Shown here: piece by piece, positions 5,122 through 55,897 of the stretch
Layout of the letters: each line of letters starts with the position of its first letter
Position numbering within the stretch: position 1 is the stretch's first letter
Source of the DNA: Patescibacteria group bacterium
GTDB taxonomy: Bacteria; Patescibacteriota; Doudnabacteria; UBA920
DNA length: 64,000 nucleotides
Direction of reading: 5' to 3'
Assembly: GCA_036726225.1 (NCBI GenBank)
Contig: DAIMCS010000001.1
Span: 69,776 to 133,775 of the forward strand
Made by a program: the position numbers and the translations under genes
Notes under the pieces: model-generated
Told to the model about the DNA's origin: nothing
The model's database searches: none
What the model saw: the letters and a program-made list of their open reading frames with translations, nothing else

Positions 5122-6465
5122 TTAAAATAAAGCAACTTGCTTACCCTTTTTACTTAGTTTTTCCCGCTCTTTGTCTGAATAAATATGGATCTTACCAAAA
5201 ACCCCGTCGTAGCCGCCTTCTATATTTACCTTGCCCTCCCTTACGCGGATAATTGACTGTGCAATTTGCGGAGTGCTGATTTTCGCGATTTCATTTTCTG
5301 ATAAATCTAAAAGGATAGAAAATTCATCACATAACTCCCCCTCGCTTCGCTCTCCCCCTCTTAATTTAAGAGGGGGCCGGGGGGAGTTAACCATTTGTTC
5401 GTATAAAACCGAAACTTTTTTACTGCTCACGCCAACATCTAAAGTATCGGCGATAACTTCTTCCAGCGGAATAACACTTTTAAACGGAATAGCTTTTGGT
5501 GGTGTAAATCCAAGTTCCCTGTCTGCCAACTCATCAACTCTATTTAATACACCGACCAATAATTTTTTCCCGCACACCGGACATACGCCGCCCAATTTTT
5601 TGGTCTGGGAAGGCAGGCAGGAAAATTTACAGTCCCTATGCCCGTCTAAATGGTATTTGCCTTCTTCAGGAAAAAACTCAATGGTATACAAAAATTCTTT
5701 GGGATTTTTACTATAAAGCACGCGGATAATTTCAGAGTAGGATAATTTCTTTTCGTCGATTTCGAAACAGTTAGCTTCCCTGCCAATCTTCCTTAAACTG
5801 TGAGCATCGGAATTAGAAGTTAGGGAATATTTATCTAACCCCGATATTTGCCAATTCATTTTAGGGTCGCTTGATAAGCCTGTTTCGATCGCATGGATAT
5901 ATTTGGCTTGATCGCCAAACGCTTCTTCTACGCTATTAAAGCCGGACAAAGACCCAAATACTCCAAAATGCGGCGTCCAAGCGTGAGCTGGGATAACTTC
6001 CGCTTGAGCGTCTGCATCTTTAACTATTTTTACTAATTCATCACAATGGATGCCCATAATTGGCCGGCCGTCTGCTTTCAAGTTGGCACCTCTCTTTTCT
6101 AAACCACTGATGATTCTATCCACCGCTTCAAAGTTCGGCGCAAAAATCATACTGTGCACGCGCCTTACTTTGTCGCCTTGTTTATATATAGAGGAAACTT
6201 CCGAAGTCAGCATAAAATGCGCCCTCACAGAGGATTCCCCTCTTGCAAGAGGGGAATCCTCTGCTTTGAGCTGATACAGTCCGGGTTTGGTTTCCTCGAG
6301 CGCGGATTTTAATTCAGCTAACCACCCGGGATGAGTGAAATCCCCGGTGCCAATAACTCCTATGCCCTTTTTGTCCGCCCACACTCCGATGTTAGGCGGG
6401 GTTAAATCCTGTGAGCAAGCTCTTGAATATTTACTATGAATTTGAAGATCTGCGATAATGCGCAT
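5122..6465 (-). CDS. PHP-domain metal-dependent phosphoesterase with a zinc ribbon (EndoQ / TIGR00375-like putative nuclease)
   Basis: N-terminal IADLQIHSKYS and TGDFTHPGW PHP motifs. CPVCGKK zinc ribbon. Two in-frame palindromic insertions (see repeats). Confidence 0.55.
   Translation of the reverse strand: MRIIADLQIHSKYSRACSQDLTPPNIGVWADKKGIGVIGTGDFTHPGWLAELKSALEETKPGLYQLKAEDSPLARGESSVRAHFMLTSEVSSIYKQGDKVRRVHSMIFAPNFEAVDRIISGLEKRGANLKADGRPIMGIHCDELVKIVKDADAQAEVIPAHAWTPHFGVFGSLSGFNSVEEAFGDQAKYIHAIETGLSSDPKMNWQISGLDKYSLTSNSDAHSLRKIGREANCFEIDEKKLSYSEIIRVLYSKNPKEFLYTIEFFPEEGKYHLDGHRDCKFSCLPSQTKKLGGVCPVCGKKLLVGVLNRVDELADRELGFTPPKAIPFKSVIPLEEVIADTLDVGVSSKKVSVLYEQMVNSPRPPLKLRGGERSEGELCDEFSILLDLSENEIAKISTPQIAQSIIRVREGKVNIEGGYDGVFGKIHIYSDKEREKLSKKGKQVALF
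5331..5388. repeat. Nested palindrome inside the PHP-gene CDS: AACTCCCCC...CCCCCTCTTAA-T-TTAAGAGGGGG...GGGGGGAGTT. It is in frame and encodes PPLKLRGGERSEGEL.
   Basis: Seen directly. Core at 5354-5376. Confidence 0.6.
6228..6263. repeat. 36-nt perfect palindrome CAGAGGATTCCCCTCTTGCAAGAGGGGAATCCTCTG inside the PHP-gene CDS. It is in frame and encodes EDSPLARGESS.
   Basis: Seen directly. It shares the CCCCTCTT...AAGAGGGG core with the 5354-5376 palindrome. Confidence 0.6.
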
Positions 6466-9470: not shown

Positions 9471-10646
9471 TCAAGCGTACTGGCGAACCAATTCATGTGC
9501 CACTTCGGCTACACGAATTATTGAACCGTCCGGGCCTGATATGCGATACCGGATGTACTTACCGGTGCCCGAAAACATCAAATCGGTATAGCTCACGATG
9601 CCATGTTGTGCCAAAGCCATCGCGAACTCATACGAATTTTTCCCAGCCCTGAGCCAACCCTCCGGTAAGAGGATATACAAAAAGATACTCGCAAGCCACT
9701 GCGGAACTTCCTTCCATCCAGCTTCATTGAAGAGCTCGAACGTTCTGTCCCCAAGAGTCGTGTAAATCTTGCGGGTCTCTTCAATTGCGTTGGGGCTAGT
9801 CAGACAGCCATTGAGACCGGCAGCAAAACCAACCTGGGCGCTGCGGCTGCCGCCTTCAAATTCGCTGCGATTAATTGCTTTTACCTGACTAACTACGTGC
9901 TGGTCTCCCATAAGGCCTCCGCTCATCAAGCCCGGATACCGCAAAAACTTGGAAGCGGAATTGGTTGTTACAACCTTCCTCTGCAAAGCACCCTGTACCC
10001 GCAAAGCGCTTGCGGGAAAAGCTCCTCGGGTGATGTAGCGATAAGCATCGTCAAACCAGGTAATCGCATTAACCCTTTCACTTATCTCAACTGCTCGTTC
10101 TGTTTCCTGCCAAGTCATAATCTCGCCGGTTGGGTTGTCAACAGGAAGATGAACGAAAACGTCGGCAGCAAAATCACCGACAACTTCTTCATCGAGCCTG
10201 TCAACGTATCGGTCCTTGCCAAATTCGTATTCAACGAAACGGCAGATCCCCCCGGCTTTTTCTATTGTTGCAACGTGCCCACCATAGCATGGCTTACGAA
10301 GAACAAAGACCGGCGGTCGTCCTAACTTATTACGAAGAGCGTCAGCTAGTTGACCAGTAAAGCGCCTTGTACCTGCTGCGCCAATCATAATATTGTCGTC
10401 ATCCAGCTCAACACCGTCAATTTGGCTGGAAAAAACTTGTAGGGCTTCAATGCATTTTTGCAATCCCTTTCTGGGAGCATAGTGATGCATTTTTGGCTGC
10501 CGTTTTGCCTCTATCTCTGCTTCGAGTGTGACTGGATCAGGTTCCCCTTCAGGATTACCCAAGCCACTATCGTGATAGAACTTACCGAAAGCCTCGGCCG
10601 TGCTCTCGATATTAAATCTCATGGCTTCTGGACTCAGTTGAATCAA
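9471..10646 (-). CDS. PLP-dependent aminotransferase (class I/II fold)
   Basis: NPTG motif and TNSASKFL (SxSK PLP-lysine motif). GC content clearly higher than neighbours. Confidence 0.65.
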   Translation of the reverse strand: MIQLSPEAMRFNIESTAEAFGKFYHDSGLGNPEGEPDPVTLEAEIEAKRQPKMHHYAPRKGLQKCIEALQVFSSQIDGVELDDDNIMIGAAGTRRFTGQLADALRNKLGRPPVFVLRKPCYGGHVATIEKAGGICRFVEYEFGKDRYVDRLDEEVVGDFAADVFVHLPVDNPTGEIMTWQETERAVEISERVNAITWFDDAYRYITRGAFPASALRVQGALQRKVVTTNSASKFLRYPGLMSGGLMGDQHVVSQVKAINRSEFEGGSRSAQVGFAAGLNGCLTSPNAIEETRKIYTTLGDRTFELFNEAGWKEVPQWLASIFLYILLPEGWLRAGKNSYEFAMALAQHGIVSYTDLMFSGTGKYIRYRISGPDGSIIRVAEVAHELVRQYA

Positions 10647-10807
10647 TTTCTTTCTCCCCTATTTCAAAAATCGTTATTGTCCCTCGTTGAAATTTTTAAA
10701 ATGCCTCAAATTACCCTCTGTTTGGGAGGTAGCGGCACGCGCAAAAATACCAACTAATTCTTGCGCTTACCGCCTAGGCCCCAAAATTTACACCAGAAGA
10801 ATGAGGG

Positions 10808-10980
10808 CTCCCAAAAATCAGGAGCGCAGTCCCGATGACCATCGGGACGAGCACGGATTTTTGGGAATGCGGGGCAATGTCCCGAAGGCTGAAGTGGGCG
10901 AAAAACCTTTCGCACACGTAAGCCGCAGGGACAATTGACCCGCAGTGGCGGGGGCCTAAAAATTTTTGTTTTAGGTCCCC
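10808..10980 (+). repeat. Copy B of the hairpin repeat (10808-10866) plus a ~90-nt structured module homologous (reverse orientation) to the tRNA-Ile and tRNA-Ala 3' flanks. It ends at a tRNA-3'-end-like minihelix GGGGACCUAAAA...UUUUUAGGCCCCCGCCA on the minus strand.
   Basis: Manual alignment: GGGGCAATGTCCCGAAGGCTGAAG...ACGCGTAAGCCG.AG.ATTGACCCG matches the reverse complement of 49928-50000 and 49388-49460. The inner hairpins covary. Confidence 0.65.
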
Positions 10981-21107: not shown

Positions 21108-21453
21108 AATCTTGGATAAACCTTTATGGAATAAAATTCAACGAGGATGCACTTAGTTTATGGTCTTATTGCGTTTACTGAATTTTGCGTGGCTATAAAG
21201 AATGCTGCGGTTACAAGCAAAATTAACAAAATAACGCCATAAACCTTTAAGTGTTGTCTCATTGTATATACAAATTAACAAATGGCACAAATGAAACGAA
21301 TAACCACAAATCTGTTAATATCAGTTTCATTTGTGCATCCGTATATTTGTATCTTACACACTCACAAATTGCTAGTCAAAAAAGTTAAAATTTTCGATTG
21401 ATTAGTACTGCTCGGCTGAACACATTACTGTGCTTACACCTGCAGCCTATAAA

Positions 21454-21518
21454 TCAGTAAACAGTTCACAGTACGCAGTATACAGTATTGCTACTGTCTA
21501 CTGTTTCCTGTTTACTGA
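21454..21518 (-). repeat. Palindromic hairpin insertion TCAGTAAACAG...CTGTTTACTGA in the 23S 3' domain
   Basis: Absent from the E. coli-type sequence between conserved blocks. Confidence 0.5.
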
Positions 21519-21865
21519 GCACTGATGAAATACGCGGTAGTCTTCCGCGAATCTGTATTATGTATTGCTACATAAAACGAAACCTAGTTTTGTAGACGGC
21601 TTCACGCTTATATGCATTCAGCGCTTATCCAAACTAGACCTAGCTACCCCGCCATGCCCTTGACAGGACAACGGGTACACCAGAGGTCTATGCATCTCGG
21701 TCCTCTCGTACTAGAGATGCGACTACTCAAGTTTCGAACACCCACAGCAGATAAGGACCAAACTGTCTCACGACGTTTTGAACCCAGCTCGCGTACCACT
21801 TTAATATGCGAACAGCATAACCCTTGGGAGCTTCTTCACCCCCAGGATGTGATGAGCCGACATCG

Positions 21866-22362
21866 TACATAATCCATACTTTCGTATGGGGCAGACTATA
21901 TCTTGTTCTTGTCAGCGGTTTTAGGATCTGTCTCCATAACCTGCTTTTTTTTGACAAGACTCGGCGTATTATGGAAACAAGTATTAGGTATTATGTATAA
22001 CGTATTAAGCGCTGCAGACTGCAGTCGCCTTATACCTTATACTATATACTTTATACCTGCTTACATCTTCCCTTTCGGGTCAGTCGTTACGGGGTCAATG
22101 ACTAGTATTACGTATTATGTATAAAGTATTAGGTGCTGCAGTTGCAGTCACGTTATACCTTATACGTTATACTTTATACTACCCACGACTTCCCACGGTG
22201 TTGCCGGTTACTTCTTGTTTCCACTTAAGTAACTACGGGTTCACCGTTATAAGCCGAATTTATTTTCTTAGAATTATTATCACTCCGACTATTACGTCGG
22301 AGCAGACGGAACTAAGACACTTAGGTATGAGATTGCTCTCAAAGCACCCCGATTGATGGTTA
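21866..22362 (-). other. About 500-nt insertion in 23S domain V. It sits between ...GGTTTGGCACCT and CGATGTCGGCTC, next to the peptidyl-transferase centre. Its AT-rich interior contains two large palindromic hairpins built from GTATAA/GTATTA hexamers around GCTGCAG..CTGCAG loops.
   Basis: Conserved exon-like blocks were identified on both sides. The insert does not end in G, so it is not an obvious group I intron. Confidence 0.6.
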
Positions 22363-23103
22363 AGGTGCCAAACCCTCTCGTCGATGTGGACTCTTGGAGA
22401 GGATCAGCCTGTTATCCCTAGAGTAACTTTTATCCGTTGGGCTTTGCGTCTTCCACTCGAACGCATCGGATCACTAACTTCCACTTTCGTGCCTGCGCGG
22501 GTCGCCGCCCTTGCAGTCAAGCATGCTTATGCGTTTGCACTATCGGCATGATTTCCATCCATGCCTAGCATACCTTAATAAACGCCTCCGTTACCATTTA
22601 GGAGGCAACCGCCCCAGTTAAACTACCCACGAGCCACTGTCCCAAAGTAGGTTAGACTTTGGTTAGCAATTTCACTTCTACAGGGTGGTATTTCACCTGT
22701 TGCCTCCATTTCAGCTGGCGCCGAAACTTCAAAGGCTCCCACCTAGGCTAAACAATAAAAATAAAATTGCAATGACACGCTATAGTAAAGCTTCATAGGG
22801 TCTTTCCGTCTTGCTGCGGGTAGACGGCATCTTTACCGCCATTGTAAGTTCATCGGAATGTTCGTTAAGACAGTCCTCTACTCGTTATGCCATTCGTGCG
22901 GGTCGCAACTTACGCGACAAGGAATTTCGCTACCATAGGACAGTTATAGTTACTGCCGGCGTTCATCAGGGCTTGGCCAACCACCTTGCGGCGGTCGGTT
23001 TAACCTTCTGACACTGGCCAGGCATCAGCCCGTATACATCAGCTTAACGCTTTAGCACGGACCTAAGTTTTTGGTAAACAGTCGGGAGAGGTCTTTTGTT
23101 GCA

Positions 23104-23417
23104 GCCTAAGTCTTTACTTTTTGGAAGTGATGCTGTTGATAAACCCATTTTTCATATGTTAGAAAATGGATTAGTATATGAATAGCATCGCTGATCGTAA
23201 ATGAAAGAAAGGGAGGATCCAAGATGACGCCAACGGTATCAATTATGGTCGGAATAGCGCTGTGTCTATTCGCAATCACCGTTCCGGTGGTTCCTGTTCT
23301 GTGGGACACGCTCAAGGAACGCTAATGCGTTTGATGGCTGTCGAACGGGGTTGCTTCGCAATCCCGTTTTTTCTTTCTTTAAAATCTTTTTCACTTACAA
23401 AAAGTAAAGACTTAGGC
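23104..23417 (-). other. 314-nt insertion in the 23S helix-63 region, bounded by a perfect 20-bp inverted repeat GCCTAAGTCTTTACTTTTTG / CAAAAAGTAAAGACTTAGGC (IVS-like)
   Basis: The flanks match GGCAAAA...GG and GGCTGCAAC...GACGCCTG...GGAAGGTTAA of 23S. Confidence 0.6.
23224..23325 (+). CDS. Candidate 33-aa hydrophobic peptide MTPTVSIMVGIALCLFAITVPVVPVLWDTLKER. It is encoded antisense to the 23S rRNA, inside the IR-bounded insertion.
   Basis: GGGAGG SD 7 nt upstream of the ATG. Intrinsic terminator AACGGGGTTGC-TTCG-CAATCCCGTT followed by TTTTTT at 23344-23372. Confidence 0.3.
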   Translation: MTPTVSIMVGIALCLFAITVPVVPVLWDTLKER

Positions 23418-24087
23418 AAGGTATATACCTAAGGTACACCTGCTTTTTTGCCGAGTTCCTTAACGAACATTGCTCCGGACGCCTTGGGATTCTCTCCCCA
23501 TCCACCTGTGTCGGTTTACGGTACGGACACCATTAAACATGATTACGACGGTTTTCTTGGCACCTTGATTCACACTAATTCCCGTTGCCAGGTTTCTTTA
23601 TACTCTCGAGCTTGAAACCGGCTGCAAGTCCTTTTGGGACCGACAGACAGTAATGAGTTGCGGATTTGCCAACAACTCACCCTACAAGTACAACAACGCA
23701 AATAGTCAGATTACGCTAGTGTTATCATGATGCGTCACGCCTTAAATAATTTAATGGTGGTTATGGAATATCAACCATATTTTCCATCGGGTGAATCCCT
23801 TGGGACCCACTCTTAGGATCGACTAACCCAGGGACGACGATCGTTGCCCTGGAAACCTTGGATATTCGGCGAAGAGGATTCTCACCTCTATATATATTAC
23901 TTATTCCAACATTCTTACTTGTACACTGTCCAGCGCCGCTTACGCATACGCCTTCAGCCTGTGTACAACACTCCTCTACCACCAATGCAATGTTACTCGC
24001 ATTGATCCACGTCTTCGGCACCTAGCTTAGCCCCTATATATTGTCGGCGCAGGATCGCTTGACCAGTGAGCTGTTACGCTTTCTTTA

Positions 24088-24124
<37 letters not shown>

Positions 24125-24517
24125 GGGCAATCCCACATCCTTTGCACTATAGCTAGGATTTGGGGGCCTTAGACGGTGGTGTGGATTCTTCTCCATTTGT
24201 CTCGTGAAGCTTAGACCTCACGGACTGACTGCCGAGATCTTGACCAAAAGAATTCGGAGTTTGGTTGGAGCCTACCGATTGCTCAGCAGGTTTCCATTCA
24301 GTGCTCTACCTCTTTTGGGAACTCTCGACGCTAGCCCTAAAGCTATTTCGAGGAGAACCAGCTATCACCCGGTTCGATTGGAATTTCTCCCCTACGCACA
24401 GCTCATCCCCTATTTTTGCAGCAATAGTGGGTTCGGACCTCCCGTTGCTTTTACACAACGTTCATCCTGGCCATGCGTAGCTCACGCGGGTTTCGGGTCT
24501 AACTCATGCGACATATA

Positions 24518-24603
24518 AGTAGGTATAAAGTATTACGTATTAAGTATTAGGTATCAGGGCAAATGCCGAGATACGTTATACCTTATACTTCATACTTTAT
24601 ACA
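24518..24603 (-). repeat. AT-rich palindromic hairpin insertion in 23S (GTATAAAGTATTACGTATTAAGTATTAGG...ATACCTTATACTTCATACTTTATAC), the same family as 25212-25296 and the pair inside 21866-22362
   Basis: Seen directly. Confidence 0.55.
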
Positions 24604-24721
24604 AACTTATTACGGACTATTCATCCTCGCTTTCACTACACTTTCGTCTTTGTTAAGACTTAAGTAAGCCGCATAAGATTAACTCGTTGGATCATTCTTC
24701 AATAGGCACGCGGTTAGCCAT

Positions 24722-24816
24722 CACAGATACACTGATTTACACTGATTTCGCAGATATATATAGATTTAATCTATATATAAATCTGTGTTATCTGCGTCCA
24801 TCAGAGTATCTGTGAT
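24722..24816 (-). repeat. Palindromic hairpin insertion in 23S (CACAGATACACTGATTT...AGATATATATAGATTTAATCTATATATAAATCT...TATCTGTG)
   Basis: Seen directly. Confidence 0.5.
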
Positions 24817-24878
24817 CGGGCCTTCCACTCCTTGTAAGTATACGGTTTCAGATACTATTTCATTCCCCTTCCGGGGTG

Positions 24879-24919
<41 letters not shown>

Positions 24920-25211
24920 ATATGAGTATTTAGCCTTAGATCTTAGTCGACCTGATTTCCGACCAGATTTCTCGTGTCTGGTCGTACTCAAGAAAAAGTT
25001 AGGAAATTGCATGGTTTTTCGCGATACGGGACTATCACCCTCTTTGGTCCGCCGTTCCAGGCGTGTTCTGCTAAACAGCAAACATAATTCCCTGCCCCTT
25101 TACAGCGGGGCAATAACTTCCACTTATAACACCTAATTAGCAACGACTGTAATCTTTAATTCTCCGCCTTGCGGCTTTGAAAACACTAATTAAGTTTGGG
25201 CTAATAAAGCA

Positions 25212-25296
25212 AGTATAAAGTATTATGTATAACGTATTACGCATCCGGGCAAAAAGCCAAGATACTTTATACCTTATACTCTATACTTTATACAAA
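25212..25296 (-). repeat. AT-rich palindromic hairpin insertion near the 23S 5' domain (GTATAAAGTATTATGTATAACGTATTACG...TTTATACCTTATACTCTATACTTTATAC)
   Basis: Seen directly. Near-identical arms to 24518-24603. Confidence 0.55.
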
Positions 25297-25591
25297 CTCT
25301 ATATACTTCCGCTTTCGCTCGCCACTACTAACGGAATCTCGTTTCGTATTGCTACGAAATTGATTTATTTTCCACGTGCTACTGAGATGTTTCACTTCGC
25401 ACGGTTCCCGCATACTATACCCCACGGCATAGCAGCACATACTCTTCCAGTATGTGGGTTTCCCCATTCGGACATCCACGGATCAAAGCTCTGTTGCCAG
25501 CTCCCCGAGGCTTTTCGTAGGCTCAAACGTCCTTCATCGGCTCATATTACCTAGGCATCCACCGTATACCCTTAACTTATTTTAACTTTTA

Positions 25592-26828: not shown

Positions 26829-26845
26829 CAACCCTTGTCGCATCC

Positions 26846-26890
26846 AAAACGGCGGGCGGACACGAAATTCGTGTTCCGACCCGCCGTTTT
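26846..26890 (+). terminator. Cassette terminator T1: AAAACGGCGGGCGG-[ACACGAA A TTCGTGT]-TCCGACCCGCCG followed by TTTTTT
   Basis: Conserved outer arms and a covarying inner stem, as in T2 and T3. Confidence 0.65.
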
Positions 26891-26896
26891 TTAATG

Positions 26897-26925
26897 TTGA
26901 CCTCAAGGCAGGCTTTTGCTAACCT
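26897..26925 (+). promoter_or_regulatory. STAS cassette promoter P2: TTGACC-N17-TAACCT
   Basis: Identical to P4 over about 45 nt. Confidence 0.5.
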
Positions 26926-27422: not shown

Positions 27423-27446
27423 GCCGAGCGATGACAATCACGAACG

Positions 27447-27497
27447 CAAAACGGCGGGCGGTGTGCCTCTGGCACATCCGACCCGCTTTTGTTTTTG
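27447..27497 (+). terminator. Cassette terminator T2: AAAACGGCGGGCGG-[TGTGCC TCT GGCACA]-TCCGACCCGC followed by a T-run
   Basis: Seen directly. Confidence 0.65.
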
Positions 27498-27499
27498 TA

Positions 27500-27528
27500 T
27501 TGACCTAACGGTAGCGTTTTGCTAACTT
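27500..27528 (+). promoter_or_regulatory. STAS cassette promoter P3: TTGACC-N17-TAACTT
   Basis: Seen directly. Confidence 0.5.
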
Positions 27529-27897: not shown

Positions 27898-27916
27898 TAA
27901 CCCTTTATCACGAACG

Positions 27917-27966
27917 CAAAACGGCGGGCGGTCTCCCTACAGGAGATCCGACCCGCCGTTTTTTAA
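27917..27966 (+). terminator. Cassette terminator T3: AAAACGGCGGGCGG-[TCTCC CTACA GGAGA]-TCCGACCCGCCG followed by TTTTTT
   Basis: Seen directly. Confidence 0.65.
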
Positions 27967-27968
27967 TG

Positions 27969-27997
27969 TTGACCTCAAGGCAGGCTTTTGCTAACCT
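27969..27997 (+). promoter_or_regulatory. STAS cassette promoter P4: TTGACC-N17-TAACCT
   Basis: Seen directly. Confidence 0.5.
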
Positions 27998-44721: not shown

Positions 44722-44778
44722 AAATTAGTTACAAGTGACAAGTTGCAAGTCTTTTCACTTTCAACTTGTCACTTGTCA

Positions 44779-46536
44779 CTATTCTGTTGTCACTCTAATT
44801 ACTTCGTCCATAGTGGTCTCACCGCGCAAAACTTTTATTACCCCGTCCTGCTTCATTGTAATCATACCCATTTTCAAAGTCTCTTCGTAAATTTTGTGCG
44901 CTGAAGCTTTGCCCATAACTAAATCTTGAATTTCCGGCACAATGGGCAAAACTTCAAAAATTCCGTACCTGCCCACATAACCGGTGCGACCGCATTTTTC
45001 GCAGCCCTGGCCTTTGAAAGTTTTTAAGTCGTTTTTGTCGAAACCCTGGAAGTAATCTTCAGGAATGGTGGACAGATTTTTTTTAATTTCCTCCTCCAGA
45101 CCTTTGGACAAAGGCACTTCTATTTTGCAATCCTGGCAAATTTTTCTAACCAGCCTCTGCGCCATAACCACATTGACAGATGCAACCAGCAAAAACGGCT
45201 CAATGCCCATGTCCACCATACGCGGCATAGCGCCAATGGAGTTGTTGGTGTGGAGCGTGGAAAAAAGTAAGTGCCCGGTAAGGGCCGCATGCACGGCAAT
45301 TTCACAAGTTTCCTTGTCCCGGATTTCACCGACCATCACAATGTTAGGGTCCTGGCGCAAAATGCTCCTTAGGCCCGATGCAAAAGTAAGGCCAATATCC
45401 TGGTTAATTTGGCTTTGGTTCGCGCCTTCTAAAAAATATTCCACCGGGTCTTCCAAAGTGACAATGTTAACCGACGGCGTATTTAAAATACTTAAAATAG
45501 AATATAAAGTTGTGGATTTTCCGCTGCCGGTTGGACCGGTAATTAAAAAAATTCCGTGGGTCTTCCTAATATTCTCCTGCACCCATTGCAGGGCCCTGCC
45601 GCGGATGCCTAACTGGTCTAAAGTCGGGGCTTTGGTGGTTTTGTCCAAAATACGCATGACGATTTTTTCGCCATAAATTAAGGGCAAAACGGAAACACGC
45701 AAATCCACCGATTTTCTGCCGACCTCCATATGAAAACGTCCGTCCTGCGGCAAACGGGATTCGTCAATTTTTAGGTTAGACAAAATTTTTATACGGGTGA
45801 CTATAGAAGGCTGGACACTTTTAGGGAGCATTAAAGAAGTATGCAAAATGCCGTCTATGCGGTAACGAACCCTTACATCTTTTTCCGAAGGCTCTACGTG
45901 AATATCAGAAGCATTGGCTTCAATTGCGTTGCTAAGTATGACCTCTACAATCTTAATTATAGGCGCTTCTTCAATAACCTGAGGTGCGGCTTCTTTTTTT
46001 ACTTCTTCCGGCTTTTTCAAACCTTGAGCTGTTGTCTGAATGTCCTTTAAAGCCTCGCCAACTACTGTTTTTAAATTCTGCTTTTTGCTGATGACTGCAT
46101 GAACCGAAGTTTCCGAAGCAAGGTAAAGTTGTACCTGCAAATTTTGCTTAACACCCAAAAATTCCAAAGCTTCGAGCGCAGACAGGTTAGTCGGGTCGGT
46201 AATTGCGACTTTCAAACCTTTGCCCTGCAGCTCAAAAGGGACAAAATTGTAAAAATTTATGGATTCAATCGGAATTAAATTTAAAACCTGGGCAGTAACC
46301 TGAATTTGTCGCAAATCTGCGTAAGGCAAGTTAAAAAAAGCGGCCTTAGCCTTAGTCAGTCCTTCTTCGTCCAAAATTTTCTGGCTTATAAGCAACTGGC
46401 TAAAGTCCTGCGGCTTTTGTTTTTGCAGCTCCTGCAGCTGGCTTAACGCTTCGGCTTTTAAAAATCCGTTATCAACCAAAAATTTTTCAAAACCAACTGT
46501 GGGCGAATTGCCATTTGTTTTTACTATGGAACCCAT
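44779..46536 (-). CDS. pilB: Type IV pilus assembly (extension) ATPase, GspE family
   Basis: 585 aa. Walker A GPTGSGKSTT. C-terminal tetracysteine CEKCGRTGY. Confidence 0.85.
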   Translation of the reverse strand: MGSIVKTNGNSPTVGFEKFLVDNGFLKAEALSQLQELQKQKPQDFSQLLISQKILDEEGLTKAKAAFFNLPYADLRQIQVTAQVLNLIPIESINFYNFVPFELQGKGLKVAITDPTNLSALEALEFLGVKQNLQVQLYLASETSVHAVISKKQNLKTVVGEALKDIQTTAQGLKKPEEVKKEAAPQVIEEAPIIKIVEVILSNAIEANASDIHVEPSEKDVRVRYRIDGILHTSLMLPKSVQPSIVTRIKILSNLKIDESRLPQDGRFHMEVGRKSVDLRVSVLPLIYGEKIVMRILDKTTKAPTLDQLGIRGRALQWVQENIRKTHGIFLITGPTGSGKSTTLYSILSILNTPSVNIVTLEDPVEYFLEGANQSQINQDIGLTFASGLRSILRQDPNIVMVGEIRDKETCEIAVHAALTGHLLFSTLHTNNSIGAMPRMVDMGIEPFLLVASVNVVMAQRLVRKICQDCKIEVPLSKGLEEEIKKNLSTIPEDYFQGFDKNDLKTFKGQGCEKCGRTGYVGRYGIFEVLPIVPEIQDLVMGKASAHKIYEETLKMGMITMKQDGVIKVLRGETTMDEVIRVTTE

Positions 46537-49387: not shown

Positions 49388-49516
49388 CAGGTCAATCGTT
49401 CTTTCGGCTTCCGCGTCCTGAAAAATTCAGGCCGCTGCAGCCTGCAGAACGTTGCCCTTCATCACAAAAATCCGTGCTCGATTCGCTTTCGCGAATCTGC
49501 GCTCCTGATTTTTGTG
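49388..49516 (+). repeat. Conserved structured tRNA 3'-flank module, copy 1: GGTCAATCGTTCTTTCGGCTTCCGCGTCC-[CTGAAAAATTCAG]-GCCGCTGCAGCCTGCAGAACGTTGCCC... It ends in hairpin-repeat copy D at 49463-49516.
   Basis: Aligns base for base with 49928-50076 and with the reverse complement of 10808-10942. Confidence 0.7.
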
Positions 49517-49581
49517 AATTAAAGGCTCCGCGTTTTAGGAGCCTTGACAAGCCCTTTAGACTCTAAATTAAAAACAAAAAT

Positions 49582-49927: not shown

Positions 49928-50076
49928 GGTCAATCATTCTTACGGCTTACGCGTCCCCGAAAGTCGGGGCCGCTTCAGCCTTCAGAATGTTGCCCCTTAT
50001 CCCAAAAACCCCTGCCTGCCGGCAGGCAGGCGTACTCGTCCCAATGGAAATTGGGACTCCGTTCCTGGTTTTTGGG
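49928..50076 (+). repeat. Conserved structured tRNA 3'-flank module, copy 2. Its inner hairpin CCCCGAAAGTCGGGG covaries with the copy-1 hairpin. It ends in hairpin-repeat copy E (50001-50076), which carries an extra GC hairpin CCTGCCTGCCGGCAGGCAGG.
   Basis: Seen directly. Confidence 0.7.
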
Positions 50077-54445: not shown

Positions 54446-55897
54446 TTAACCTGCTCTTACTACCATCGCCTCCCTGCCCGGGCCGGTGCCGACCAACAAA
54501 ACAGGAACGCCGAGATGTTTTTCCAAACGCGATAAAAATTCTTTGGCAGACGGCGGCAATTTTGACTCATCGTTAATTCCAAAAATACTTTCTTCAAAAC
54601 ACGGCCAGTCTTCTTTTATAATTTCTACCGATGATAACTCCCAGGCCGCAGGCAGTTTGCCCGGTGGTAAAATCTCGCCTTTGTATTTATACCCTAAAAC
54701 CACGGGAATTGATTTAAGGCCTGAAAGCATATCAAATCGGGTTAATGCAATATATTTTGGCCCGTTAATGCGGATAGCATACTGCAGCCAGGGAATGTCT
54801 AAAAATCCTACCGATCTACCCCGGCCCGTGGTTGCCCCGCGCTCATCACCCAAAACCTGGAAGTATTGCGACATTTCTGCCGGCGATGCAGATTGGGAAT
54901 TAATTTTTTCAAGCATTGATGATAAAAATTTATCCTTCGCCTCGCCTTTGGAAAATAATTCAAGATGTTCCTTAGCAAAACCCATTGCCGCTTCCCTCTC
55001 CCACATCTCGGACGGAAATGGCCCGTTGCCCACGCGCGTGGGTAAAGTTTTGGCAACTATTATAGCAACCGGAAAATTATCCATAGGCAGTCCCGTGCCA
55101 ATGGAAGCGCCGGTGGCAACAGAGTTGCCTGAAGAGACGAAAGGATATGTCCCCCACCAGGCATCGAGTCCCGTTGCCTGCGCGCCTTCAAACAAAATCT
55201 TTTTGCCTTTTTTTAACTCTTCGTGCAGCAAAAAACCGGTGTCTTCCACAAAATCTTTTATTAAATTCGCTTGATCCAATAATTGCTTTAATACTGAATC
55301 GACAGAAGGAAATTCATCTGTGCCCACTTTTAAAACCTCAACACACGGCAATAAAACTTTATACAAACTTTCTAAGGATGCTTTAAGCAAATCCGGCTCA
55401 AATAAAAACCCGACCAGGGGAGCCAAACGCAGTTTATACAAACCTTCCAAAGGCCCAATGCCTTTGTTGGTGGTGCCGATTTTTTTATTCCCCCGCATTA
55501 CTTCTATGTAAGTTTCCATTAAGCGGTGGTACGGCGTCCACAAGGTGGCTTGTTTGTCTATGTATATGGGCGCAAGCTTGCCGCCTAAAACTGCTTTAGT
55601 TTCCTCCAGCTCCTTAATAAATAATTCCAAATTAAAAAATTCCCCGCGAGCCAGAACGCAAATTTTGTTTTGCGCAAGCCCGCAAGGAATTAAATGACTG
55701 ACTAATTTTTGACCCGTTGGGGTAAAAACCGTATGTCCGGCATTTGAGCCGCCGGAAAACCTGGTAACTATGTCAAAATTCTCCATTATAAGGTCTATGA
55801 CCTTACCTTTGCCTTCATCTCCCCAATTGGCGCCTACGACAATAAGGGTTTGGTAATTTTTGAAAACCTCCCGAAGTTTCTGCTTTGTATCTGACAT
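54446..55897 (-). CDS. purA: Adenylosuccinate synthetase (unusually long, 483 aa)
   Basis: GANWGDEGKGK P-loop. Confidence 0.8.
   Translation of the reverse strand: MSDTKQKLREVFKNYQTLIVVGANWGDEGKGKVIDLIMENFDIVTRFSGGSNAGHTVFTPTGQKLVSHLIPCGLAQNKICVLARGEFFNLELFIKELEETKAVLGGKLAPIYIDKQATLWTPYHRLMETYIEVMRGNKKIGTTNKGIGPLEGLYKLRLAPLVGFLFEPDLLKASLESLYKVLLPCVEVLKVGTDEFPSVDSVLKQLLDQANLIKDFVEDTGFLLHEELKKGKKILFEGAQATGLDAWWGTYPFVSSGNSVATGASIGTGLPMDNFPVAIIVAKTLPTRVGNGPFPSEMWEREAAMGFAKEHLELFSKGEAKDKFLSSMLEKINSQSASPAEMSQYFQVLGDERGATTGRGRSVGFLDIPWLQYAIRINGPKYIALTRFDMLSGLKSIPVVLGYKYKGEILPPGKLPAAWELSSVEIIKEDWPCFEESIFGINDESKLPPSAKEFLSRLEKHLGVPVLLVGTGPGREAMVVRAG

Follow-up and report, generated by a model that had tools for sequence, protein, structure and literature searches.

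Palindromic elements in frame within an endonuclease Q gene of a Patescibacteria bacterium, and their relatives in other genomes and in phages

Two palindromes in an intact endonuclease Q gene

The stretch of DNA analysed here, called the window throughout, comprises 64,000 nucleotides of a Patescibacteria group bacterium of the Doudnabacteria (GenBank assembly GCA_036726225.1, contig DAIMCS010000001.1, positions 69,776 to 133,775), and this report concerns two palindromic elements that lie within one of its genes. The gene occupies window positions 5122..6465 on the minus strand and, according to the list of open reading frames (ORFs) and to homology, is an intact member of the endonuclease Q (EndoQ / TIGR00375) family encoding 447 amino acids. 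A model that had seen only the letters and their ORFs had described two palindromes in this coding sequence, both read through in frame, and the unbroken 447-aa ORF bears out this sequence-only reading. The Pyrococcus EndoQ structures 5zb8 and 7k30 match the protein over its full length (E about 1e-38, residues 3-431), and the family-invariant residues are retained. Its score against the NCBIfam model TIGR00375 is 152.8 bits, under the curated cut-off of 326.6, and Pfam returned zero matches at E <= 0.01; by sequence comparison, the protein is a divergent member of its family. The closest 120 homologs share 70-79% identity with it, and the source labels of some of them read endonuclease Q family / TIGR00375, Candidatus Doudnabacteria or Patescibacteria group. 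Codon 8 (window 6442-6444) specifies Gln, within DLQIHS, at the position of the first His of the Pyrococcus N-terminal H-x-H (DLHIHS); this Gln is invariant in a 54-sequence EndoQ alignment, and the His is retained by a few more distant orthologs.

Element 1, defined by pairing, folding and alignment to insert-free orthologs, is a nested palindrome of 58 nt at 5332..5389 and lies in a loop that we call site B. The nested structure is as the sequence-only reading described it, and the coordinates given there (5331-5388) shift by one base to the right. Its outer arms, TAACTCCCCC (5332-5341) and GGGGGAGTTA (5380-5389), enclose an inner hairpin at 5354-5376, CCCCCTCTTAA-T-TTAAGAGGGGG, with a stem of 11 bp and a loop of 1 nt, and a 12-nt spacer on one side only is unpaired. 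The element is translated in frame as NSPRPPLKLRGGERSEGEL, a net gain of 17 codons at site B. Element 2, at 6228..6263 in the loop called site A, is the perfect 36-nt palindrome CAGAGGATTCCCCTCTTG/CAAGAGGGGAATCCTCTG, exactly as first reported, and was followed up by alignment, folding and covariation. It is built from two units of AGAGG-N-CCTCT, and its in-frame peptide, AEDSPLARGESS, i.e. (A)EDSPLARGESS, amounts to a net gain of 9 codons. Element 2 is also a double palindrome, in which AGAGG and CCTCT stand in four alternations; as a result, two small hairpins, one from each 18-nt arm, can form as an alternative to the single long one.

Within the 64 kb there are exactly two occurrences of the core CCCCTCTT..AAGAGGGG, each inside the EndoQ gene, in agreement with the shared core claimed from the sequence, and 0 in 100 dinucleotide-preserving shuffles of the window; no further copies were found in the window's other coding sequences (64 kb searched). 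The two elements may be kin; their one link is this 8-bp core, a motif widely met in these genomes. Folded on the coding strand, they have predicted energies of -34.9 and -38.9 kcal/mol (z-scores -4.6 and -7.8), values that none of the shuffled sequences matched. When a 60-nt fold was slid along the plus strand of the whole window, the two elements were the most stable segments within genuine coding sequence, with values of -34.9 and -33.5 against a mean of -9.5 (sd 4.9). They are richer in GC than the EndoQ gene, at 0.59 and 0.56 compared with 0.43, a difference that the description 'much more GC-rich' had overstated. An Rfam scan of the window assigned no family to the hairpins and matched 23S rRNA, 5S rRNA and three tRNAs only.

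Insertion sites and dispersed copies

When the protein is aligned with Pyrococcus EndoQ, a gap of 16 residues lies opposite the peptide of element 1, and that of element 2 coincides with a variable region containing gaps. Ortholog lengths range from 420 to 478 aa with a mode of 421 aa (24/120 homologs), and since 447 = 421 + 9 + 17, the window protein corresponds to the insert-free form plus the net insertions at sites A and B. A MAFFT alignment of the homologs has two main hot spots of insertion: site A, after query residue ~70, is filled in 61 of 120, and site B, after residue ~366, in 58 of 120. Neither site is occupied in any ortholog at 50-65% identity. An AlphaFold model of the protein (mean predicted local distance difference test score (pLDDT) 75, predicted template modelling score 0.78) places site A in the loop joining strands 63-66 and 83-96 and site B in the loop joining helices 349-359 and 381-387, with the local pLDDT falling to 65-71 at both sites compared with about 90 in the flanks. 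Judged from the alignments and the predicted structure, both elements are lineage-specific insertions in loops. The sequence-only reading had proposed this comparison with EndoQ homologs, and had named equivalent residues in distant homologs as the sign of ancestral sequence; neither Pyrococcus EndoQ nor the distant orthologs have a counterpart of either segment.

What is maintained in these insertions is seen in six site-A elements of the element 2 type (from the window, L015 and L065-L068; loci other than the window are cited by such labels), which we aligned for covariation analysis. The AGAGG/CCTCT blocks are invariant, and in the variable middle block both arms change together, so that 97.9% of the cells are paired and double-sided changes occur in 6 of the 16 pairs. 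The covariation score of 0.462 was reached by none of 500 shuffles, which gave 0.183, and slid partners gave <=0.13. The encoded peptides vary freely, for example EDSPLARGESS as against EGAPLSRGVPS. A constraint or a homogenising process thus seems to act on base pairing and not on the protein. This is hard to reconcile with the proposal that the inserted peptides are adaptive new surface loops of EndoQ, serving interaction or regulation, with the palindromy being incidental. Both peptides are rich in Pro, Gly and charged residues, are loop-like and in frame, and leave the gene intact, as that proposal would have it; however, the peptides at each site differ completely among close orthologs, the same DNA families yield similar peptides in unrelated proteins, and the compensatory changes that preserve pairing alter the peptide. 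We regard an adaptive role of the peptides as highly implausible.

The same compensatory changes, which keep an element 2-type stem at one site in six orthologs, could be taken to mean that selection keeps the hairpins for a cis-regulatory role in the EndoQ mRNA or gene, exerted through RNase III or other processing, translational pausing or protein-binding cruciforms. Such a role would suit the great stability of the hairpins (-35 to -39 kcal/mol) and the presence of a structured insert of some kind at each site in about half of the orthologs. Both inserts are, however, missing from 24 of the 120 close orthologs and from all more distant ones, many of the inserts found at these sites form no fold (e.g. 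L008_B, L011_B, L017_B), and the sequences themselves turn up in intergenic DNA, in unrelated genes and in structural genes of phages. A terminator-like T-run is absent after both copies of element 2, the one in the window and the intergenic one described below. Cis-regulation therefore seems to us quite unlikely.

Codon-level DNA of 50 EndoQ ortholog loci was used to compare the inserts that other genomes carry at these loops; the ordering of the orthologs is a rough neighbour-joining one, too weak for counting gains and losses. The inserts are a mixture, most of them hairpins: C-run/G-run hairpins from many families occur beside double and nested ones, and there are also directly repeated tandem units and arrays whose period is 7-8 nt. 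Folding z-scores below -2 were obtained for 21 of 38 inserts as against 6 of 114 control coding pieces from the same genes, and scores below -3 for 18 of 38 as against 1 of 114. Copies that are 92-94% identical over 36-56 nt are found across different genes and genomes, and one family may occupy site A, site B or another gene, depending on the genome. P0022 carries the family GTAGGGGAGGG..CCCTCCCCTAC (peptide VGEGFKPSPT), for instance, at both of its EndoQ sites; L002 has it at site B and also in a 429-codon ORF (L002:6228-6263) that resembles Kbl, 2-amino-3-ketobutyrate CoA ligase, by eye only. The L022 site-B element is 93% identical over 56 nt to an insert in L049's homologous copy of this type of 429-codon ORF. 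Inserts also nest, as in L064, where a heptamer-repeat insert contains a 42-nt element, CCGTCTCGCC..GCCGAGGCGGGC. L003 and L049 have a member of the CCGTCTCGCC family at a third site within EndoQ, and two other genes contain it as well; its loci are L003:10949, L049:10943, L064:4099, L003:7802 and L002:7750. Its phase is constant (PSR..AEAG), and the three preceding bases are GAC, GAC, GAC, AAC and GCC. A strict rule that the family always follows GAC was dropped, the three GAC instances representing two sites and the others having AAC and GCC. This family, written CCGTCTCGCC..GCCGAGGCGGG(C/T), is a sister of those in the window and has a CGTC-like start; it was observed at five places in three genes and once within another insert.

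Beyond the EndoQ gene, a metagenome scan with the element 2 core found an identical 36-mer on contig L052, where the identity stops exactly at the ends of the palindrome. Five independent contigs contain this copy, which sits between genes: on one side is a small ORF downstream of ruvB, on the other a membrane-protein gene. The orthologous ruvB-side spacer of a related genome, L070, is only 10 nt long and has no palindrome. The RuvB of this locus and the window EndoQ come from the same sample series, and one sample holds both, on different contigs. In the protein clusters of the two, the longest contig is 507,895 bp in either case, the RuvB being 100% identical to the clustered one. At least two identical copies of element 2 are thus present in one organism, one genic and one intergenic. 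The scan returned 4 loci in all, of which the other three share the 18-20-nt core alone, in unrelated GC contexts, and are uninformative. Viral contigs gave 0 matches to element 2 with a 20-mer and 0 with a looser pattern.

Element 1 belongs to a dispersed family too. At L047:984-1013, a 428-codon ORF that is dehydrogenase-like, as judged by eye only, contains an in-frame copy that is 93% identical over 30 nt and repeats the arm-hairpin-spacer-arm layout, and relatives with one or two inner hairpins occupy the orthologous site in L046, L044, L005 and L021. The inner hairpin recurs in 7 IMG/VR contigs, and the 5' architecture TAACKCCCCC-N(1-5)-CCCCCTCTT-N(3-7)-AAGAGGGGG in 25 viral (IMG/VR) contigs, where several copies lie in frame within phage genes for portal proteins and head-maturation proteases. 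Further copies in other coding sequences, which the sequence-only reading had suggested looking for, are thus absent from the 64-kb window and present, for the element 1 family, in other genes of a related genome and of phages. We counted 37 core hairpins in 27 viral loci, 15 of them within open frames of at least 150 codons, and 13 of these 15 intragenic copies have the same PPL..RGG phase (CCC CCT CTT ..) as in the window. Where the loop contains TTAA, either of the other two phases runs into TAA. Copies of the family always start with TAAC and end with GTTA, and the TA..TA could be either a terminal repeat or a duplication, no close empty site being available. The consensus had no match in INPHARED phages or PLSDB plasmids, a result to which the low-complexity filter may contribute. 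One Mu-like phage contig (L072, IMG/VR, 11 kb) was seen to carry 12 GC-rich C-run/G-run hairpins (13 are listed, one being of a different type), among them a two-hairpin module of ~90 nt that is present twice, at 2760-2838 and 10072-10150.

These copies bear directly on the idea that the palindromes are not mobile and arose locally, by template switching or quasipalindrome mutation at two fragile loops, their likeness reflecting convergence on C-run/G-run stems. Some features of the loops are what local origin would predict: both sites are hypervariable and hold many unrelated sequences, including slippage-like tandem direct repeats (L015_B, L049_A), the palindromes are perfect or nearly so, as expected from templated correction, and removal of either element leaves a loop shorter than in insert-free orthologs. 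Convergence, however, cannot explain dispersed near-identical copies, namely the identical 36-mer at an unrelated locus of the same organism, the 92-94% identical copies in other genes and genomes, and the full element 1 architecture repeated in 25 viral contigs. Local origin is thus largely refuted, and we consider it very unlikely.

Palindromes can also be created by chimeric reads, and sequencing or assembly artefacts were considered, the more so as the EndoQ ortholog of the Nanopore-derived L047 (10001-11298) has a frameshift within its site-A hairpin insert. The identical window protein with both inserts is, however, found on 16 contigs from independent JGI, ENA and NCBI assemblies, and the ruvB-locus copy on the five contigs mentioned above, which reduces the probability of an artefact to next to nil. 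The L047 frameshift is probably a homopolymer error and not evidence of recoding, because this metagenome-assembled genome is Nanopore-derived and the shift falls within C/G runs; it may represent a real disruption, which is not the reading we favour. An apparent frameshift in the EndoQ gene of L004 was rejected, as the start had been mis-set owing to a partial upstream duplicate of the gene's 5' end. This duplicate, at L004:10052-10117, is a 22-codon partial copy (MLVIADLQIHSKYSRAC..) located ~110 nt upstream of the true start.

Related hairpins elsewhere in the window

Repeat search, arm comparison and folding identified a related phenomenon at 44726..44781, an intergenic hairpin whose arms consist of tandem heptamers (ACAAGTN). 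The left arm is of one family with the insert that L063 carries in frame at EndoQ site B (SVTSDKLQMT), as a comparison of AGTTACAAGTGACAAGTTGCAAGT with AGTTACAAGTGACAAGTTACAAAT indicates, and the ACAAGTN family is therefore intergenic in the window and coding elsewhere.

The 23S rRNA gene (window 21381-25587, minus strand) measures 4207 nt compared with 2925 nt for the Rfam model, so that it contains about 1.3 kb of insertions. At least six of these are hairpins of roughly 65-100 nt with tandem-heptamer arms. Four copies, at 21968-22061, 22092-22184, 24515-24610 and 25204-25302, form a (GTATNNN)n family, and two other heptamer-armed hairpins lie at 24720-24816 and 21454-21518. These insertions look like the RNA-gene counterpart of the in-frame inserts in proteins.

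Between genes, one family has three copies, at 2376-2445, 10800-10870 and 49455-49525, the last in reverse orientation. Its outer stem, CCCAAAAATCAGGAGCGCAG..GAGCACGGATTTTTGGG, is constant, the inner self-complementary hairpin differs in each copy, and two copies adjoin tRNA genes. Three terminator-like hairpins, at 26830-26900, 27435-27505 and 27900-27970, follow successive small genes and have the form CAAAACGGCGGGCGG-[variable, self-complementary]-CCGACCCGCCGTTTT, with a constant outer stem and a centre that is variable yet paired. GC-rich palindromes at 226-285 and 50001-50030 have the common core CCTGCC(T)GCCGG.CGGCAGGC(AGG) and may be another small intergenic family. Among the protein genes, adenylosuccinate synthetase (54446-55897, minus strand; 483 aa) spans only 416 Pfam profile positions with its residues 19-479, and so has about 45 extra residues.

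Origin of the elements and relation to known repeats

Our preferred interpretation, to which we assign a probability of roughly 80%, is that the palindromes are copies of small dispersed hairpin repeats, selfish or near-neutral mobile DNA of the kind represented by repetitive extragenic palindromes (REPs), Rickettsia palindromic elements (RPEs) or miniature transposons, filtered in genes by tolerance. Their hosts would be genomes of Patescibacteria (Doudnabacteria) and some uncultured phages. Copies land between genes, inside protein-coding genes and within one another. Within genes, the survivors would be whole-codon insertions in a stop-free phase and in permissive surface loops, and such filtering by frame, stop codons and loop would account for the changing assortment of inserts at the two EndoQ loops, with one in each loop in the window. 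The peptides (PPLKLRGG.., EDSPLARGESS) are probably by-products of translating stems that are rich first in C/T and then in G/A, and not functional modules. The hairpin itself may serve propagation, for example if a transposase provided in trans recognises it in single-stranded form, or alternatively the arms may be homogenised by hairpin-templated repair. By analogy with REPs, our leading guess for the mode of movement would be a single-strand, hairpin-dependent route of the RAYT/IS200-like type (RAYT, REP-associated tyrosine transposase) that leaves no target duplication.

Several observations weigh against dispersal by mobility followed by a filter of tolerance. A Pfam scan of 50 window ORFs revealed no transposase, RAYT or integrase, and neither a target-site duplication nor a common target motif was found around the two identical copies of element 2. 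In about 85 kb of this organism just two or three copies are seen, so that copy number may be low. Removal of either element leaves its loop 2-3 residues shorter than in insert-free orthologs, which speaks against clean insertion into the modern empty allele. The palindromic symmetry could equally stem from templated repair between the arms, with no role in mobility. Finally, the inserts are concentrated at two EndoQ loops beyond the expectation from simple random insertion plus selection, the neighbouring genes being much poorer in them (IMPase 0/32, GAPDH 0/15, PEP synthase 3/29). It is plausible that tolerance explains this concentration only in part, and that turnover at occupied sites, by nesting and replacement, contributes.

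Selfish palindromes within intact protein genes are documented mainly in Rickettsia and in a scattering of REP-bearing bacteria. The families RPE-1 to RPE-8 (Ogata et al. 2000), as summarised in PMC3184786 and PMC3733652, are Rickettsia-specific, defined by sequence and about 105-146 bp long, and the short RPE-4 and RPE-6 bear a CGTC tag; CGTC-tagged REPs have stems of 8-9 bp and loops of 4-5 nt (PMC3733652). According to the same summaries, RPEs are dispersed palindromes, both intergenic and in frame at tolerated positions of intact genes, and are read as selfish DNA. The window elements resemble them in their dispersed copies, their stable hairpins and their in-frame, lineage-specific insertion into conserved ORFs, and to this extent the comparison with RPEs drawn by the sequence-only reading was apt. 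They are not, however, members of the Rickettsia families: they measure 36 and 58 nt, reside in Patescibacteria, have no CGTC tag, and include one family in common with phage contigs, a separation that is made on the published descriptions of size and tag.

A second likeness is to the GTAG/CGTC REPs located within genes (Di Nocera et al. 2013, PMC3733652). REPs of these types are 20-40-bp stem-loops, mostly extragenic, of which some lie wholly in ORFs; many intragenic ones reside in genes for replication and repair (uvrABCD, recBCD). Related species carry some of these at roughly matching positions, and dimers or groups that encode 20-30 aa make up more than half (PMC3733652). EndoQ is likewise a repair gene, and relatives of element 1 occur as double hairpins. 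The stems of the window elements, 16-18 bp and 11+10 bp, nevertheless exceed the 5-13 bp of REPs. Neither element has GTAG/CTAC or CGTC/GACG at an end, and CGTC/GACG is absent throughout both, while sister families in related genomes look tagged (GTAGGGG..CCCCTAC; CCGTCTCGCC..), with GTAG at both ends of L002_B. REPINs and other REPs mobilised by RAYTs (Bertels & Rainey 2011, PMC3116915; RAYT model in PMC3733652) are proposed to move as single-stranded DNA with the help of an HUH/Y1 transposase acting in trans and to leave no target duplication. The copies of element 2 also lack a duplication, and a connection with such systems may be drawn by analogy; in contrast to them, the elements have no GTAG cleavage motif, and the window, 64 kb of a contig of at least 508 kb, holds no RAYT or IS200-like gene among its 50 ORFs scanned.

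The TAAC/GTTA ends of the element 1 family, which would allow a TA..TA duplication, recall the miniature inverted-repeat transposable elements. Those with a TA target duplication (Correia / IS630-Tc1-like) consist of two terminal repeats around a core; the window elements, however, are far shorter and are hairpins throughout, and element 2 has no duplication. The small dispersed repeats of cyanobacteria and their heptameric STRR (short tandemly repeated repetitive) sequences are reportedly mobile hairpins of ~20-30 nt that nest in one another. Likened by description only, repeats with heptamer periodicity also recall the heptamer-armed hairpins of the window, but the phylum differs. The literature that we searched held no description of elements of this kind in bacteria of the Candidate Phyla Radiation (CPR), nor of these sequence strings.

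The finding has consequences for annotation, as the inserts alone explain the ortholog lengths of 420 to 478 aa and spurious peptides of the 'PPLKLRGG' type are to be expected in protein databases. Their fast turnover among close relatives could make the inserts useful for telling strains apart in metagenomes. For the biology of mobile elements, one family is common to a CPR bacterium and to phage structural genes, and has no tag, duplication or known transposase; for protein evolution, the inserts amount to natural loop-insertion scans of EndoQ, portal and other proteins. A more far-reaching proposal, which we put forward as a doubtful but conceivable one, is that Patescibacteria and uncultured phages share an undescribed, active system of ultra-short hairpin elements (about 24-60 nt), with phages as vectors and a new or unrecognised hairpin-specific single-stranded-DNA transposase. 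Integration would then proceed with no target duplication and would prefer exposed single-stranded loops, which would give rise to nesting, to the peppering of the 23S rRNA gene and to recurrence at the same few gene positions. If such a shared system exists, its elements would be a source of fast change in the surface loops of proteins encoded by these small genomes.

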